From Flavobacteriales bacterium (lineage in GTDB: Bacteria; Bacteroidota; Bacteroidia; Flavobacteriales; BACL11), in the NCBI GenBank assembly GCA_014381465.1, contig JACNLP010000042.1:40-64039 (forward strand): a stretch of 64,000 nucleotides of DNA, given 5' to 3'. How positions within the stretch are numbered: position 1 is the first letter of the stretch; every line of letters starts with the position of its first letter. Positions 7,459 through 13,758 of the stretch are shown one piece after another. Position numbers and translations under genes: made by a program. The notes beneath the pieces were generated by a model. That model did not search any database. It saw only the letters and a list, made by a program, of their open reading frames with translations, and was not told the origin of the DNA.

Positions 7459-8133
7459 ATGATTTGGATAATAATGATTGGCTTCATGATAATTGGAGGG
7501 ATAGTAAGTAGCCGACTTAAAAGTAAAGTAAAAAAATATAGCCAAATTCCAACTGTTTCTGGTTTGAGCGGAAAAGAAATAGCAGAAAAAATGTTAAGTG
7601 ACAATGGAATTTCGGATGTAAAAGTAGTATCGGTTCCAGGTAAATTGACTGACCACTACAACCCAGTAGACAAAACCATAAACCTTAGCCCTGATGTATA
7701 TCAAGGAAGGCATGTAACAGCAGCTGCTATTGCTTCCCATGAATGCGGACATGCCGTTCAGCATGCTACTGCTTATCAGTGGCTTGAAATGCGTTCTCAA
7801 ATGGTACCAATTGTAAATTTCAGTAATAGCATGATGAGTACCGTTTTCATTATTGGATTAATTGGTGGAAGTGTTATTGGTATAGGGTGGAGTCAACTTT
7901 TAACAATATTTATTATTTTACAAGCTATTGTTACTGCATTTACATTAGTTACACTTCCTGTTGAATTTGATGCAAGCAGAAGAGCTCTTATTTGGCTAAA
8001 ATCTTCAAATATAACTAATGAGGAAGAAGTGTCTTTTGCAGAAGATGCACTAAAATGGGCGGCAAGCACTTATGTAGTTGCAGCATTAGCAGCAGTAACT
8101 TATCTACTTTATTATATGGCATTAAGGGACTAA
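7459..8133 (+). CDS. YugP-family membrane zinc metallopeptidase
   Basis: N-terminal TM helix, HExxH as SHECGHAVQH, C-terminal TM helices with EFDAS. Confidence 0.8.
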   Translation: MIWIIMIGFMIIGGIVSSRLKSKVKKYSQIPTVSGLSGKEIAEKMLSDNGISDVKVVSVPGKLTDHYNPVDKTINLSPDVYQGRHVTAAAIASHECGHAVQHATAYQWLEMRSQMVPIVNFSNSMMSTVFIIGLIGGSVIGIGWSQLLTIFIILQAIVTAFTLVTLPVEFDASRRALIWLKSSNITNEEEVSFAEDALKWAASTYVVAALAAVTYLLYYMALRD

Positions 8134-9986
8134 TGCGTACTCTATTTCTTCTGATTTTTCCACATTTACTTTTTGCACAAGGAAGTTTGGTTTTAGTTGG
8201 GGGTGGTGGAGAAAGCAATGGCGGATGGAGTGATGCTCCTTACACTTGGGGGCTTAATCAATCTCAAAACAGAAAAGTTGCAGTAATTTATTACAGCAGT
8301 TCTACTTCATGGATACCTGAATATTTTATGGATTTAGGGGCTTACGACACAGCTCGTTTTGATATTGATAACTTAACATTAGCAAACTCGCAAGCCACAT
8401 ACGATAGTTTGATGCAATTTGATGTGTTTTTCATAAAAGGTGGTAACCAATGGAATTACTACAATACTTGGAACAATACAAAAGTAGAAGATGCGATTAG
8501 AGATAAGTTTAATCAGGGAGGTGTGATAATGGGAACCTCTGCTGGAATGGCAATTCTCTCTGAGGTAATTTTTACTGCAGAAAACGGAAGTGTTTATCCT
8601 GATGAAGCTTTAACTAACCCTTATAATAATACTGATATTTCCTTAAAAGATGACTTTCTAAATATCTTCTCAGATTATATTTTTGATACACATTTTGTTG
8701 AAAGAGGAAGATTTGCACGCCTTTTAGTTTTTATGGCAAATTGGTATCAAAATGCAGCACAGCAAAGAAAAGATGGTGTTGGAGTGGATGATAGAACAGC
8801 AATCTGCATTGATAGCAACAATATTGGAGTGGTGATGGGCTCTGCTGCCGTTACCATTATTGAAAACAATGCTTGGCTCAATTCTCATGTTTCAAAAGAT
8901 GCAAAATACATACAACTTTTAAATGGAAATAAATATGATTTTAACTCTAAACAAATTGTAAGTGGAACGAATGCTATAAATATTTATCCCACCCCTATTA
9001 CAAACCCTATTTCATATAATAATTACATAAATACATTACTTATAAGTGGTAGTGATAGTTTGGAACACATGGATAAGTTTCTATGCGAATTAGATAGCTT
9101 GCACGGACAAATTCAAGACACTATTTATATTTATACTTGCAACACAAATAGAGCAGGTTTACTTGAAACAAAAATCAATAATCTTAATAACCCTAACACA
9201 ATTGTAGTGGATGTTACAAACGGAATAATACTGCCCTCTACTTATTTTTCTTCTGGAAAAAAGATATTGTTTTATGAAAATGATTGGGCTACTCTAAAAG
9301 ATTTTTTGAATAATACAACAAATGGAAACATCTTAAAATCTAAACTAAAAGATGGAGTAACCATCACTGCTTTTGCAGGGCAGAATTCCAAATTTGTGGG
9401 AACTACTTTTTGTAGTAATATACACGATAATATATATGGAGCTTATTATGGAGAATTAGAATTTGAAAAAGGATTAAATCTTATACAAAGAAGTGTTTTT
9501 ATACCAAATACTTTTGATAAATACACTTCCTCTTATTATGAAAATACTACTTCTGCAATTCCTTGGGCAATGGTAAAGGATACATTGGCTCACGGCTTTT
9601 ATCTTAGTTATGATTCCTATCTTTTAATCAAACAAACTGCCAATAAAAAAGCGGCATATCAAAGAGAAGGAAGAATTATTTTACTTACAAATGAAGGCAC
9701 TACTGCCGATACCGCTACTTCTTTTGTTTATCCTTCACAAAACTTTCTTAGACAAATAGTTGGGTTTGAGAATTTTAGAATTCAGTGTCTCAATGGAGAT
9801 TCCTTGCCAATTATAGAATGGAGCTCAATAACTAACCCAAACAACATAATAGAACAAACTACTGAAAAAGGAAAGCTCCTTAATATCACTAATATTTTAG
9901 GAGAAAGAACTAGATACAAAAAGAATTCTCCTCTAATTTATATCTATAATGATGGCACAATAGAAAAGAAAATAATTATTGAGTAA
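8133..9986 (+). CDS. secreted peptidase S51 / cyanophycinase-like protein with short C-terminal sorting-type tail
   Basis: The start overlaps the upstream stop (TAATG). Signal peptide MRTLFLLIFPHLLFAQ; LVLVGGGG, GTSAGMAI (nucleophile Ser), DTHFVERGRFARL. Tail ends PLIYIYNDGTIEKKIIIE. Confidence 0.7.
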   Translation: MRTLFLLIFPHLLFAQGSLVLVGGGGESNGGWSDAPYTWGLNQSQNRKVAVIYYSSSTSWIPEYFMDLGAYDTARFDIDNLTLANSQATYDSLMQFDVFFIKGGNQWNYYNTWNNTKVEDAIRDKFNQGGVIMGTSAGMAILSEVIFTAENGSVYPDEALTNPYNNTDISLKDDFLNIFSDYIFDTHFVERGRFARLLVFMANWYQNAAQQRKDGVGVDDRTAICIDSNNIGVVMGSAAVTIIENNAWLNSHVSKDAKYIQLLNGNKYDFNSKQIVSGTNAINIYPTPITNPISYNNYINTLLISGSDSLEHMDKFLCELDSLHGQIQDTIYIYTCNTNRAGLLETKINNLNNPNTIVVDVTNGIILPSTYFSSGKKILFYENDWATLKDFLNNTTNGNILKSKLKDGVTITAFAGQNSKFVGTTFCSNIHDNIYGAYYGELEFEKGLNLIQRSVFIPNTFDKYTSSYYENTTSAIPWAMVKDTLAHGFYLSYDSYLLIKQTANKKAAYQREGRIILLTNEGTTADTATSFVYPSQNFLRQIVGFENFRIQCLNGDSLPIIEWSSITNPNNIIEQTTEKGKLLNITNILGERTRYKKNSPLIYIYNDGTIEKKIIIE

Positions 9987-10012
9987 GGTTAACAAAAGTG
10001 CAGCAGTCTATG

Positions 10013-10096
10013 TTTACCCACCCCTTAATCCTCTTACTTTACACACCCCCAACCCCTTACTTCACATGCGTTCAGCACATGCTTATTAGAGGGGGG
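10013..10096. repeat. ORF-less copy of the terminus of the aroC cassette (two degenerate tandem units plus G-run)
   Basis: The 13-mer TTTACCCACCCCT at 10013..10025 is identical to 30328..30340. It is followed by TAATCCTCTTAC / TTTACACACCCCCAACCCCTTAC and closed by GAGGGGGG (10089..10096). Confidence 0.55.
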
Positions 10097-10150
10097 TTTT
10101 CTATATTTTTTCCTCCTGAATATAGCTTAGCAGGAATGCTTTACATAAAA

Positions 10151-10183
10151 AACTAACAACTAATAACTAGCAACTAAAAACTA
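10151..10183. repeat. heptamer microsatellite (AACTARN) x4.5
   Basis: AACTAAC AACTAAT AACTAGC AACTAAA AACTA read directly. Confidence 0.8.
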
Positions 10184-10276
10184 TTTTATATATTAGCCAA
10201 CCGAAATTAACAAAAAAGCGTGAAAAACTTTACAACAGGCATAAGTAGTGGCATAGCAGAATTTTCATTCTTCTTA

Positions 10277-10304
10277 AACACGCAACACGCAACACGCAAC
10301 ACGC
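10277..10304. repeat. perfect heptamer microsatellite (AACACGC) x4
   Basis: AACACGCAACACGCAACACGCAACACGC read directly. Confidence 0.9.
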
Positions 10305-10344
10305 TTACATAATTTAAACAATAGTTTTTTTATTGTTTTAAAAA

Positions 10345-10374
10345 GCAACTACCGAAAGGTAGTTGCTTTTTTTT
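10345..10374. terminator. strong hairpin plus T-run immediately upstream of the methyltransferase gene
   Basis: GCAACTACC-GAAA-GGTAGTTGC (9-bp perfect stem, GNRA-type loop) followed by TTTTTTTT and preceded by AAAAA. Confidence 0.6.
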
Positions 10375-10400
10375 ATGTCAATTTTTTAAAATTTAGTTAA

Positions 10401-11381
10401 ATGGCAAATAAAAACTTACACAAAGCAAAAACCAATAAGAAAGATGAGTTTTATACTCAACTTGCGGATATAGAAAGAGAAATGAAACATTATAAAAATC
10501 ACTTTAAAGGAAAGGTGGTGTATTGTAATTGTGATGACCCAAGAGTAAGTAACTTCTTTCATTATTTTTCTTACAACTTTGAGCATTTAGGATTGAAGAA
10601 GTTGATAGCTACTTGTTATAAAAGCCAAAATATGGATTTATTTAGTCAAAATGATAGTGAACAAGCTATCTATTTGGAATACACAGGAGATAAAAATGGA
10701 AATAATGTGCCAGACCCTTCTGAGATAGGAATAAAGCCACTTAAAGGAGATGGAGATTTTAGAAGTGCGGAGTGTATAGAACTATTGAAAGAAGCAGATA
10801 TTGTAGTGACTAACCCGCCATTTTCATTGTTTAGAGAGTATGTAGCACAATTAGTAGAGTACGATAAAAACTTTATAATAGTAGGGCACCAAAATGCAAT
10901 CTCTTATAAAGAGATATTTAAAATTATAAAGGAAAATAAAATGTGGTTAGGATATGGATTTAAAGGAGGTGCTGCCCATTTTATAAATACTCAATATGAA
11001 GATTATGCCAGTGCAGGTGATCATAAAGAAGGAATGATTAGAGTTTCTGGAGTAGTATGGTTTACCAATTTGGATATAAATAAAAGACATGACGATTTAG
11101 ATTTATTTAAAAAATATAACAAAGAGGAATTTCCAACATACACAAACTATGATGCAATAAATGTAGATAAAACAAAAGAAATACCTATTGATTATAAAGG
11201 TGTAATGGGTGTTCCAATCACATTCCTTAATAAATATAACCCAAAGCAATTTGAGATTATTGATATAAACCCACATTTCTTTACAATAGTTGAAAAGGGA
11301 CTACCAAAACCAAAACAATTAAAAATTGAAGGACAAAAAGACCCTTATGCAAGAATTTTAATTAAAAACAAAAGATTATGA
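10401..11381 (+). CDS. EcoRI-methylase-family N6-adenine DNA methyltransferase
   Basis: N-terminal KKDEFYTQLADIE, catalytic motif IV VVTNPPFSLFREY, C-terminal GVMGVPITFL. This layout is typical of the EcoRI_methylase family. Confidence 0.75.
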   Translation: MANKNLHKAKTNKKDEFYTQLADIEREMKHYKNHFKGKVVYCNCDDPRVSNFFHYFSYNFEHLGLKKLIATCYKSQNMDLFSQNDSEQAIYLEYTGDKNGNNVPDPSEIGIKPLKGDGDFRSAECIELLKEADIVVTNPPFSLFREYVAQLVEYDKNFIIVGHQNAISYKEIFKIIKENKMWLGYGFKGGAAHFINTQYEDYASAGDHKEGMIRVSGVVWFTNLDINKRHDDLDLFKKYNKEEFPTYTNYDAINVDKTKEIPIDYKGVMGVPITFLNKYNPKQFEIIDINPHFFTIVEKGLPKPKQLKIEGQKDPYARILIKNKRL

Positions 11382-12463
11382 AAATAGAGTTTAAAGAGAT
11401 AACTGTAAGAGAGTTGGTGGAAGGTTATGTAGATAATAAACAAGGTGGTGTGCTTGGTTTTGGTGGTAAATTAGATGTTAGGCCTCCTTTTCAGAGGGAG
11501 TTTGTTTACAATATTGATCAAAGTAAAGCGGTAATCAATACACTAAAAAAAGATTATCCATTAAATGTAATGTATTGGGCTGTAAGAGAAGATGGAACTT
11601 ATGAAATAATAGATGGACAACAAAGAACCATAAGTATTTGTCAATATGTGGGAAGAGATTTTTCTTTTGAAGGTATGTATTTTCATAATCTAACAGATGA
11701 TGAACAAAATCAAATATTAGATTATAAACTAATGGTTTATTTGTGTAGTGGTACTGATAAAGAAAAGTTAGAGTGGTTTGAAACTATCAATATTGCAGGT
11801 GCGGTACTTACTAAACAAGAACTTAGGAATGCAGTTTATTCAGGTAGTTGGGTTTCAGATGCAAAAAAGTATTTTAGTAAAAATGGATGTTATGCTTCAA
11901 ATATTGGTAGTGATTATTTAAATGGTTCTGCAATAAGACAAGATTATTTGGAAACAGCAATTAAATGGATTCATGAGGGTACTATTGAAGATTATATGGG
12001 TATTCATCAGAATGATGAAGATTCAGTAGAACTAAAAGATTACCTAACAGAAGTAATTGATTGGGTTGAGGCAACATTCCCAAACAAGAGAAAGAAATTT
12101 ATGAAAGGACAAGATTGGGGTACACTATATAATATTTACAAAGATGAAACTTATGATACAGTTAAGTTAGAAAAAGAAATAGTAAAACTAATACTTGATG
12201 ATGATGTTACCAAAAAGAGTGGTATTTATCCTTATGTTTTAACACGAGAAGAAAAACATCTATCTATTCGTGCTTTTACACCTTCTATGAAATTAAAGGT
12301 TTTTACTAAACAAAAAGGCAAGTGTAAAATCTGTAAAAAGACATTTAAGATAGAAGAAATGGAGGCAGACCATACAACACCATGGCATAGTGGGGGGAAA
12401 ACAAATGAAGCAAATTGCCAAATGTTATGCAAAAAAGATAACCGAGAGAAATCCGGCAAATAA
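11378..12463 (+). CDS. DUF262 (ParB/GmrS-like) domain protein with C-terminal HNH nuclease
   Basis: ATGA overlap with the methyltransferase stop. DUF262 core FQREFVY...IIDGQQRTISI. C-terminal His-Me finger CKICKKTF...EADHTTPWHSGGKTNEANCQMLCKKDNREK. Confidence 0.75.
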   Translation: MKIEFKEITVRELVEGYVDNKQGGVLGFGGKLDVRPPFQREFVYNIDQSKAVINTLKKDYPLNVMYWAVREDGTYEIIDGQQRTISICQYVGRDFSFEGMYFHNLTDDEQNQILDYKLMVYLCSGTDKEKLEWFETINIAGAVLTKQELRNAVYSGSWVSDAKKYFSKNGCYASNIGSDYLNGSAIRQDYLETAIKWIHEGTIEDYMGIHQNDEDSVELKDYLTEVIDWVEATFPNKRKKFMKGQDWGTLYNIYKDETYDTVKLEKEIVKLILDDDVTKKSGIYPYVLTREEKHLSIRAFTPSMKLKVFTKQKGKCKICKKTFKIEEMEADHTTPWHSGGKTNEANCQMLCKKDNREKSGK

Positions 12464-12493
12464 ATTGAATTATTAACCAATACATTTTATATT

Positions 12494-12817
12494 ATGAACT
12501 TAACAGACGCACAAAAACTGGCATTCGCAAGAGAAATGGCAGAGATTTTAACAAACAACCAAGCAGAGTTGGTAGCAGGGGGCTATGACCCTGCCGCAAA
12601 AATTACAGAATTTTGTACCCAAAGCACAGCTGCCGAAAATGCAGAAGCCGACCAACAACAAGCCCAAGCAGATGCAAAACAAGCCACTATGGATGCAAAT
12701 GATACCAGAGATACGGTTTACAACAATGCTTCTGCTACTGTGGAATTGATGGTAGGGGTGTTGGGTAAGGACAATTTGATCGTGCAAGAAATTAAAGCAA
12801 TAAGAGGGGAGATGTAA
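12494..12817 (+). CDS. hypothetical acidic Ala/Gln-rich protein (orphan)
   Basis: 107-aa ORF 30 nt after the nuclease gene. It looks richer in G+C than its neighbours. No recognisable motif. Confidence 0.45.
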   Translation: MNLTDAQKLAFAREMAEILTNNQAELVAGGYDPAAKITEFCTQSTAAENAEADQQQAQADAKQATMDANDTRDTVYNNASATVELMVGVLGKDNLIVQEIKAIRGEM

Positions 12818-12866
12818 TTGTTGTTTTTTGGGATAAAATCCTTAGCTGTTAAAGCGAAATCCAAAA

Positions 12867-12913
12867 GGGAGGTAGTCAGTTTTTATTTTTTGATACTGAT
12901 AGCCTCCTTTTTT
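12867..12913 (+). terminator. imperfect hairpin plus T-run after the orphan ORF
   Basis: GGGAGGTAGTCAGT ... ACTGATAGCCTCC followed by TTTTTT. Confidence 0.4.
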
Positions 12914-12921
12914 ATTGCCCA

Positions 12922-13069
12922 ATCCTTAGCTTTTTAGTTGCCAGCTTTGGCTTTTAGCATAAGTTGCCTTAGCTGATGGCTTACAATGCTTAGCTGTTTG
13001 GGTTTTATCCTTGGCTGCTGAGTGAAAATCCTTGGCTTTTATATTGGTGGCTTTGGCTTTTTACTCACC
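12922..13069. repeat. degenerate 21-bp-period tandem array (7 units) with core ATCCTTRGCT
   Basis: Core copies start at 12922, 12943, 12965, 12986, 13007, 13028 and 13049 (spacings 21, 22, 21, 21, 21, 21). An extra identical core ATCCTTAGCT lies at 12838..12847. Confidence 0.8.
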
Positions 13070-13083
13070 ATCTACTGACTTCT

Positions 13084-13109
13084 GTCTCCTGTCTTCAGTC
13101 TCCTGTCTT
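13084..13109. repeat. 12-bp direct repeat GTCTCCTGTCTT x2 abutting the lolA-like stop codon
   Basis: GTCTCCTGTCTT CA GTCTCCTGTCTT read directly. Confidence 0.8.
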
Positions 13110-13110
13110 T

Positions 13111-13758
13111 TTACCTCAAATCAATCACTTCCACACCAGGGTAATCCTCAGTGTTAAAAGTAAAAGGAGCAATATCTAAATTAGTTTTAAAACTCTTGAT
13201 ATTATAGGTGTAAACACCTCCATTTTTATCGTAAATCTCTAAAATATGGATTTGGCTTTTTAGGGCGTTAATGGTTAGTGTTATTTTCATAATTGGTTCA
13301 CTTTCTTTAGGAAAAAGGTCAATAATGTGCATTCTTTCTCCATCTACTGCTTTTGCTTCTACATAAGCGTTTTTGTAGTCCTCATTATAAATAGTAAAAA
13401 GTTTGTTGGGGCTTAGTGCGTCCTGATCTTCCTTGTCGTAATCCATAATACTAACTTCATTCATTTCTTTTAAATAAACCCAATGGGTAGTACCGTTATT
13501 TATAATGAGTTGCTTAGGCATATCAATCCTAAAATTATCACCTTTCAAATCCAATTTACCATTGCTTTTTTCATTTATTCCAGCGCTTTTATTGGTAAAT
13601 ATATGGTCAAATTCTATACTAATAGAGTTATAGCTTAAAGTTATTTCACTTAAATTTGCTAAAATAGAGGTGGCTAATTTATCTTGAGCTATAACAGTAG
13701 ATAAGTTAATAGAAGCTATTAAAAATAAAGCAGTTATGTTTTTTATTTTAAAATTCAT
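13111..13758 (-). CDS. LolA-like outer-membrane lipoprotein carrier protein
   Basis: Signal peptide; size and beta-rich composition. Sits immediately downstream of ftsK and overlaps it, a conserved Bacteroidota pairing. Confidence 0.65.
   Translation of the reverse strand: MNFKIKNITALFLIASINLSTVIAQDKLATSILANLSEITLSYNSISIEFDHIFTNKSAGINEKSNGKLDLKGDNFRIDMPKQLIINNGTTHWVYLKEMNEVSIMDYDKEDQDALSPNKLFTIYNEDYKNAYVEAKAVDGERMHIIDLFPKESEPIMKITLTINALKSQIHILEIYDKNGGVYTYNIKSFKTNLDIAPFTFNTEDYPGVEVIDLR

Follow-up and report, generated by a model that had tools for sequence, protein, structure and literature searches.

The closest described relatives of the locus considered here come from two directions. EcoRI is a two-gene type II restriction–modification (R-M) cassette, of a kind often plasmid-borne, in which the gene for R.EcoRI, a nuclease of 277 amino acids (aa) and of the PD-(D/E)XK type, precedes that for the methylase M.EcoRI, encoded 3′ of R.EcoRI on the Escherichia coli EcoRI plasmid. 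GmrSD, BrxU and SspE combine an N-terminal DUF262 domain of the ParB/sulfiredoxin (Srx) fold, bearing the motif (I/V)(I/V)DGQQR, with helices and a C-terminal His-Me-finger nuclease; DGQQR has been proposed as the nucleoside triphosphate (NTP) binding and hydrolysis motif of GmrS (PMC4619093) and, according to reviews, lies in the nucleotide pocket of SspE and BrxU. Here we analyse a 64,000-nucleotide (nt) stretch of contig JACNLP010000042.1 from a Flavobacteriales bacterium (GenBank assembly GCA_014381465.1)—hereafter the window—in which a gene for an M.EcoRI-like methylase (M) overlaps one for a DUF262-HNH nuclease (R). We put at about 0.8 the probability that this pair is a classical two-gene type II R-M cassette.

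Close by description is also a putative system of Prevotella intermedia ATCC 25611F, in which the gene for M.Pin25611FORF1345P (972 nt, 51% identity to M.EcoRI, REBASE-predicted target GAATTC) is followed directly on its 3′ side by a 1104-nt restriction endonuclease (REase) gene, within a 2.6-kb strain-variable locus (PMC5608340). Its size, gene order and Bacteroidota host match the Bacteroidales members of the family set out below, a likeness of description and not of sequence, the domains of its nuclease being undescribed; REBASE apparently catalogues the family as this putative GAATTC system, Pin25611FORF1345P (PMC5608340).

In the window, both genes are on the plus strand, in open reading frames (ORFs) at 10401..11381 (326 aa) and 11378..12463 (361 aa). 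The junction, read directly, runs ...AGA TTA TGA / ATG AAA, with the ATGA at 11378..11381 common to the methylase stop and the nuclease start, exactly the overlap that had been noticed when the pair was first picked out from the letters alone. The methylase matches PF13651 (EcoRI_methylase) over its full length (E = 4.1e-138), has its NPPF catalytic motif intact at residues 138–141 (nt 10812–10823) and shares with M.EcoRI both its length and 53.5% identity from end to end, which bears out its earlier assignment to the EcoRI-family N6-adenine DNA methyltransferases. It also matches the PADLOC MTase_II model PDLC03297 (E = 2.7e-124), which is centred on M.EcoRI itself, scoring 569 bits. The nuclease matches PF03235 (GmrSD_N, that is DUF262; E = 4.9e-18) and, at its C-terminus, PF01844 (HNH; E = 4.3e-11), with no match to PF07510 (DUF1524) in the Pfam search, so that all three families named in the original prediction were recovered.

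The nuclease also aligns from residue 1 to residue 361 with positions 1–372 of the 372 in the PADLOC REase_II model PDLC03418, ‘Type II restriction enzyme’ (E = 3.7e-121), which is matched too by a second subfamily of 387 aa, about 40% identical to the 361-aa subfamily of the window. R.EcoRI matches another PADLOC REase model, PDLC03551. By profile membership, the window nuclease thus belongs to a catalogued type II REase family distinct from that of the EcoRI nuclease, and it carries no PD-(D/E)XK signature. The locus therefore resembles EcoRI in its methylase and its two-gene form and departs from it in pairing that methylase with an unrelated nuclease and in gene order, which is R→M in EcoRI and M→R with an overlap here. 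Matches to the PADLOC models for NsnA (E = 7e-26, residues 30–232) and PD-T4-2_A (E = 8e-11) take in the N-terminal part of the nuclease only; Menshen NsnA and PD-T4-2 protein A have the N-terminal DUF262 region in common with it but lack HNH and work with other partners (an OLD-family nuclease in Menshen), and no Menshen or PD-T4-2 partner was found among the window neighbours, which consist of the methylase, an orphan ORF and housekeeping genes.

Other genomes bear on a functional partnership of the two genes. A scan of one genome per species gave 52 loci encoding relatives of the nuclease at 48–67% identity, drawn from more than 10 phyla and spanning Alpha- and Gammaproteobacteria, Neisseria, Chloroflexota, Saccharibacteria, Clostridia, Bacteroidales, Spirochaetia, Elusimicrobia, Armatimonadota and Pelagibacteraceae. 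In 49 of the 52, the gene immediately upstream on the same strand encodes an EcoRI-family methylase; this amounts to 49/49 testable loci, the contigs of the remaining three ending within 351 nt of the nuclease start. Of 44 measured loci, 29 have the two genes either overlapping (by 4, 1 or 11 nt) or no more than 25 nt apart, and the same 4-nt overlap recurs in a Flavobacterium phage and in Arthrobacter and Pseudarthrobacter plasmids. One representative protein is a natural fusion of 688 aa with the domain order EcoRI_methylase-GmrSD_N-HNH.

The pair is found on plasmids of Chryseobacterium, Sulfitobacter, Macrococcoides, Aeromonas, Gordonia, Variovorax, Enterococcus, Ligilactobacillus, Arthrobacter and Pseudarthrobacter—hosts belonging to Bacteroidota, Proteobacteria, Firmicutes and Actinobacteria—as well as in Flavobacterium phage laban6-1. 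An exhaustive profile search (E ≤ 1e-30) placed the family at 811 representatives of 50%-identity clusters, and word-indexed searches, one for the 361-aa and one for the 387-aa subfamily, each returned at least 8000 candidates. This is among the commoner two-gene R-M cassettes in metagenomes.

Where the gap between M and R is larger, the inserts are heterogeneous: a second tandem methylase, a HicB-like gene with a nuclease fragment, or unrelated ORFs. Locus L004 (3977–6000) has two tandem EcoRI-family methylase genes 5′ of a single nuclease, and in L034 (3678–6000) M and R are parted by a HicB-like antitoxin gene together with a 63-aa piece of another copy of the nuclease. On the Enterococcus dispar plasmid pK205-4b-C (L084, 61–4699), the oxazolidinone/phenicol resistance gene optrA separates the methylase from the DUF262-HNH nuclease, both of them intact. 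A different arrangement occurs on the Lactiplantibacillus plantarum plasmid p9 (L082, 2180–4282), where an EcoRI-family adenine-methylase domain is contained in a 700-aa protein annotated as a Dcm cytosine-5 methyltransferase, which may be a dual-specificity fusion methylase; no DUF262-HNH gene was found near it.

Four features that mark a type II R-M pair are seen here: an intact methylase motif, an adjacent intact HNH site, a conserved pairing of M with R and a full-length match to a REase profile. From the strict M→R linkage, the overlaps, the M–R fusion and the full-length Type II REase match, we infer that the nuclease is the restriction partner of the methylase, and because it is always methylase-coupled its cleavage would be blocked by modification and not dependent on it. 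The original prediction had reasoned that a modification-dependent nuclease coupled to a methylase would be self-defeating and had preferred a type II-like R-M system, provided that the two genes proved to co-occur elsewhere; they do, and the same four lines of evidence support that preference.

Within the nuclease, the DUF262/ParB-Srx-fold domain covers about aa 30–165 (11465..11872, limits approximate), an all-helical middle region about aa 166–300 (11873..12277; helices H172–289 in the AF2 model) and the HNH (beta-beta-alpha-Me) finger the C-terminus (12278..12460), all on the plus strand. The motifs first noted by eye are all present, with QREF at aa 39–42 and DGQQR at aa 79–83 (nt 11612–11626); the finger has a CxxC...CxxxC zinc site formed by C316, C319, C347 and C351, together with D331-H332...N346...N355. 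Across 58 homologues from the two subfamilies, the residues of FQREFVY, IIDGQQR and CKIC...EADHTTPWHSGGKTNEANCQMLCKKDNREK are invariant: Q39-R40, D79-G80-Q81-Q82-R83, C316, D331, H332, N346, C347 and N355 do not vary in either subfamily, and C319 and C351 are nearly invariant in both. Every invariant catalytic and nucleotide-pocket residue is intact in the window copy.

An AF2 model built from an alignment of both subfamilies reached a predicted local distance difference test score (pLDDT) of 86.7 and a predicted template-modelling score of 0.71; a shallow alignment of 30 close homologues gave a pLDDT of 47.7. Compared by Foldseek with the PDB, the N-domain of the model resembles the N-domains of CTP-binding ParB/Noc proteins (7ol9, 7nfu and 7bnr, probability about 0.9) and sulfiredoxin (6ky4), and the C-terminus resembles the Gme HNH nuclease 4h9d (probability 1.0, root-mean-square deviation 2.0 Å), the HNH finger being also the sole region matched, again to 4h9d, in a PDB sequence-profile search. 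As a whole, the model had no global Foldseek match in the PDB at E < 1e-3, the matches to BrxU (7p9k, probability 0.44), SspE (probability 0.10) and McrA all being weak. The middle helical region had no convincing PDB match by Foldseek and falls partly inside the NsnA match; it is a candidate module for DNA sequence recognition.

The nuclease thus has the plan of GmrSD, BrxU and SspE (IIDGQQR in the window), and a nucleotide-gated logic is likely, by analogy, to be common to all four. It differs from them in ending in a zinc-finger HNH domain (PF01844) where they have DUF1524, in being about 200 aa shorter and in its constant coupling to a methylase. The original prediction was correct that DUF262 usually pairs with DUF1524; yet DUF1524 is itself a His-Me/HNH-type nuclease (PMC4619093), so that the architecture here is closer to that of GmrSD than the prediction implied.

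Sequence-specific type II enzymes with a beta-beta-alpha-Me/HNH active site and a structural zinc, protected against by a cognate methylase, are exemplified by KpnI, Hpy99I and PacI. The window nuclease has the HNH site in common with enzymes of this type, but no similarity to them is detectable outside the HNH finger of about 50 aa, and we know of none among them with a ParB-like nucleotide-binding domain.

On this basis, a working scheme can be drawn. The EcoRI-family enzyme would methylate adenine at N6 within a short recognition site, for which GAATTC or an AATT-core sequence is the likeliest candidate, and the ATGA overlap would couple translation in such a way that no nuclease is made before the methylase and its amount follows that of the methylase. 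The DUF262-helical-HNH protein would then cut at or near unmethylated targets through its zinc-stabilised HNH site (His332/Asn346/Asn355), a step for which, as for methylase-first translation, gene context and conserved catalytic residues speak. By analogy with GmrSD, BrxU and SspE, the helical middle region, perhaps with the ParB-like domain, may read the site and its methylation state, and the DGQQR pocket probably binds and hydrolyses a nucleotide that gates the nuclease, with the difference that the switch would here respond to unmethylated sites and not to modified ones. That the DUF262-HNH protein is such a nucleotide-gated type II enzyme, its ParB/GmrS-type NTP switch rewired to license HNH cutting at unmethylated GAATTC or AATT-core sites, is a doubtful proposition, to which we give well under even odds.

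The relationships among the methylases bear on the likely target. Membership of the EcoRI family does not by itself decide the site, because methylases of that family can have other ones. The methylases that accompany DUF262-HNH nucleases show 38–98% identity among themselves (median 52%), and M.EcoRI falls within that range, at a median of 50% and up to 58% identity to them; it is closer to the window enzyme than 19 of 44 such methylases are. The three methylases whose partners are EcoRI-type nucleases group together in a neighbour-joining tree, as a clade that arises within the methylases accompanying DUF262-HNH nucleases. Congruence between the trees of M and R is no more than loose (Mantel r 0.31, p 0.0005; Spearman 0.07), with agreement on the nearest neighbour in 12/43 cases, and partners have been swapped: nucleases 99% and 94% identical adjoin methylases that are at most 68% identical. 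Methylases this divergent can therefore protect against the same nuclease, and near-identical nucleases beside divergent methylases are what would be expected if the methylase were an exchangeable protector of a fixed specificity.

Together, the nesting of M.EcoRI and the partner swaps favour one conserved specificity related to GAATTC, and the predicted target is likely to be GAATTC or a site with an AATT core; the REBASE prediction for the Prevotella system also points to GAATTC. Tree nesting alone cannot separate GAATTC from AATT or RAATTY, because a methylase for either of the latter would also protect against EcoRI. The window itself strongly avoids several palindromes—ACGT occurs once against 42.7 expected, GATC 48 times against 186 and GATATC twice against 21, with GGCC, CCGG and CGCG also low—and does not avoid AATT-type words; this pattern suggests long exposure of the lineage to R-M systems with the avoided sites and is unrelated to the AATT-type prediction.

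Several observations weigh against reading the pair as an active type II cassette of this specificity. Carriers of the pair show no clear avoidance of GAATTC or AATT in their pooled flanks (430 kb), in which GAATTC has an observed/expected ratio of 0.71 (rank 20/64, typical of G...C palindromes) and other NAATTN words lie at 0.84–0.94. Upstream of M genes, RAATTY is marginally enriched (22 against 14.2 ± 3.7 expected) and GAATTC occurs twice against 1.5; neither these counts nor the flank ratios discriminate among targets. The label of PDLC03418 is the name of a profile and no proof that any of its seed sequences was tested, and in the searchable literature no member has been shown biochemically to restrict DNA or to be blocked by methylation. 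Every DUF262 nuclease so far characterised (GmrSD, BrxU and SspE) is, according to reviews, triggered by modified DNA. In P. intermedia, GAATTC methylation was not detected in the single-molecule real-time methylome, and the authors call the system inactive (PMC5608340). Lastly, a plasmid of Chryseobacterium taklimakanense (L083, 1559–3586) carries an intact nuclease, 67% identical to that of the window, beside a methylase split over three frames by two frameshifts, which reflects either sequencing error or a nuclease surviving without a methylase in cis.

We considered three rival explanations, none of which we find probable. The nuclease might be a type IV, GmrSD-like enzyme directed at foreign modified DNA (carrying, for example, hydroxymethylcytosine or its glucosylated form), merely travelling together with an adenine methylase whose own function lies elsewhere, for instance in anti-restriction, regulation or protection from another enzyme. 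DUF262 with DGQQR followed by a His-Me nuclease is, after all, the architecture of GmrSD, BrxU and SspE, the literature treats DUF262 as a sensor of modified DNA, NCBI names the relatives ‘GmrSD restriction endonuclease domain-containing protein’, and the N6-methyladenine made by the methylase need not be the modification sensed. Such a division of labour would nonetheless leave unexplained the 49/49 linkage, the fixed M→R order, the overlaps and the M–R fusion in a family that spans more than 10 phyla. Characterised type IV enzymes are solitary, and two defining features of the GmrSD family fail here: DUF1524 is absent and the nuclease is never solitary. The best profile is that of a full-length Type II REase, with the NsnA and PD-T4-2 matches N-terminal only, and the whole-protein resemblance to BrxU and SspE is weak; for these reasons we regard a type IV role as improbable.

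A little less probable again is a module with little restriction activity, whether a selfish addiction element that stabilises plasmids or islands by post-segregational killing, or a methylase-guarded suicide device that responds to inhibition of the methylase by killing infected cells. Small plasmids often carry the cassette, in some cases beside toxin–antitoxin genes, it moves as a minimal two-gene unit, its locus is strain-variable, and optrA has come to be nested between M and R in one plasmid. Addiction, however, comes with every type II R-M system and is no separate mechanism, the pair has no conserved sensor or further component, and carriage by a phage equally fits restriction or superinfection exclusion; the methylase-guarded abortive system that the original prediction had kept as an alternative finds no specific support. 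Least probable, in our view, is that the window cassette is an inactive relic with a silent methylase, a silent nuclease or both, like the Prevotella example described as inactive. The lack of GAATTC methylation in P. intermedia, which has a likely homologue (PMC5608340), would fit this, as would the absence of AATT-type avoidance from the window, the terminator hairpin 30 nt 5′ of the M start and a sigma-70 scan that found no convincing promoter. Yet both ORFs are full length, every invariant residue is intact, identical copies of the cassette occur in at least five independent metagenome assemblies, and a sigma-70 promoter scan does not apply to Bacteroidota. The window copy is an ordinary, intact and recently acquired member of its family.

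Annotation is affected: proteins numbering in the thousands, at present named ‘DUF262 domain-containing’ or ‘GmrSD restriction endonuclease domain-containing’ (a name that points to type IV), are, judged by context, type II restriction subunits, and surveys of defence systems and methylomes should treat them as restriction subunits of the EcoRI-methylase type. Should the more tentative proposal of a nucleotide-gated enzyme cutting at GAATTC or AATT-core sites also hold, the nuclease would share the specificity of EcoRI, as its isoschizomer or near-isoschizomer, despite a completely unrelated fold, and the M.EcoRI lineage would have been swapped between two unrelated nuclease partners; a GAATTC target in particular would make this a clear example of a single methylase lineage working with two nuclease folds that are unrelated. 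An NTP switch like that of ParB/GmrS is otherwise known only from modification-dependent or phosphorothioate-sensing nucleases, and the family offers a natural test of whether a DUF262/ParB-like NTPase can gate a nuclease on the absence of modification, opposite to GmrSD, BrxU and SspE.

As to novelty, the searchable literature yielded no characterised DUF262-HNH type II enzyme, only the putative Prevotella system, and recent overviews of DUF262 defence list GmrSD, BrxU, SspE, Menshen, Dazbog and PD-T4-2 and no methylase-coupled type II family. It seems that PADLOC and REBASE list the family but that it is undescribed in that literature. The earlier description of the arrangement as not well characterised is fair in that no biochemical characterisation was found; ‘non-canonical’ is less apt for an arrangement that is common, already has a PADLOC model and is apparently in REBASE.

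The surroundings of the pair bear on its mobility. As first described, it sits between housekeeping genes—a peptidase_S51 gene ending at 9986 and LolA (13111–13758, minus strand)—and no integrase-like ORF lies between them. In the nearest relative, L058, the nuclease is 82% and the methylase 79% identical to those of the window and the same ATGA overlap is present, in an entirely different neighbourhood; DNA similarity between the two loci extends from the M start codon to the R stop codon only, and because homology is so confined in unrelated surroundings, the pair moves as a unit.

On the left, homology to L070/L071, which have the LpxB-SurE-Zn-peptidase-S51 synteny, stops just past the S51 stop codon, near 9990. 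On the right, LolA-FtsK relatives have in common about 45 nt beyond the LolA stop, including a GACAG/TCTCCTG heptamer tract, and diverge near 13067. These two ends of homology define a variable segment of about 9991–13066. No clean empty site was found, the contigs of S51-side relatives breaking about 117 nt past S51 and the LolA-side relatives carrying other genes. Contigs of the 80%-identical relative (L070/L071 and similar), from several independent metagenomes, all end about 117 nt past the S51 gene, which suggests that the position near 9990 is a strain-variable hotspot.

The ‘unusual repeats’ reported to flank the pair are real in part. The pyrimidine-rich left flank (9991..10400) contains heptamer tandems of AACTAAC (4.7 copies, 10151–10183) and AACACGC (10277–10304), the latter an exact fourfold tandem about 100 nt 5′ of the methylase ATG, and the right flank has a degenerate motif with a period of about 21 nt, AATCCTTRGCT..., at 12837..13061, where 5 of its 10 window matches fall. 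The TCTCCTG heptamer tract just 3′ of LolA (13071..13108), on the other hand, is ancestral host DNA and no part of an island, because it is kept past the LolA stop in L072, L074, L076 and L077, which lack the pair. The flanks showed no direct, inverted or terminal repeats pointing to a transposon and no Rfam family match, and an origin in a transposon, an integrase-driven element or an RNA element was rejected on those grounds and for want of an integrase. The strong terminator-like hairpin upstream of M (10340..10371, plus strand; 14-bp stem and T-run) is not kept in L058 and is therefore local context outside the cassette. In Neisseria dentiae (L005), a (CCGCA)x4 pentanucleotide tandem lies about 60–80 nt upstream of the M gene; it resembles the phase-variation repeats of Neisseria and, taken with the heptamer tandem of the window, hints by analogy at repeat-mediated switching of cassette expression.

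Downstream of the nuclease, an orphan ORF of 107 aa (ORF3, 12494..12817, plus strand) has no Pfam, NCBIfam or PHROG match and has been annotated as a gene solely in public assemblies of this organism. It has a G+C content of about 0.41 against 0.30 locally, is rich in Q and A, and is preceded by a promoter-like site and followed by a hairpin at about 12862–12905. ORF3 was considered as a third component of the system and rejected, being missing from all 52 related loci and from L058. On the other side of the pair, the longest ORF of the peptidase_S51/cyanophycinase-like gene (8055–9986) starts at 8055 (643 aa), whereas a start at 8133 (617 aa), which would overlap the stop of the preceding Zn-peptidase gene, is favoured by public gene calls and by homologues.

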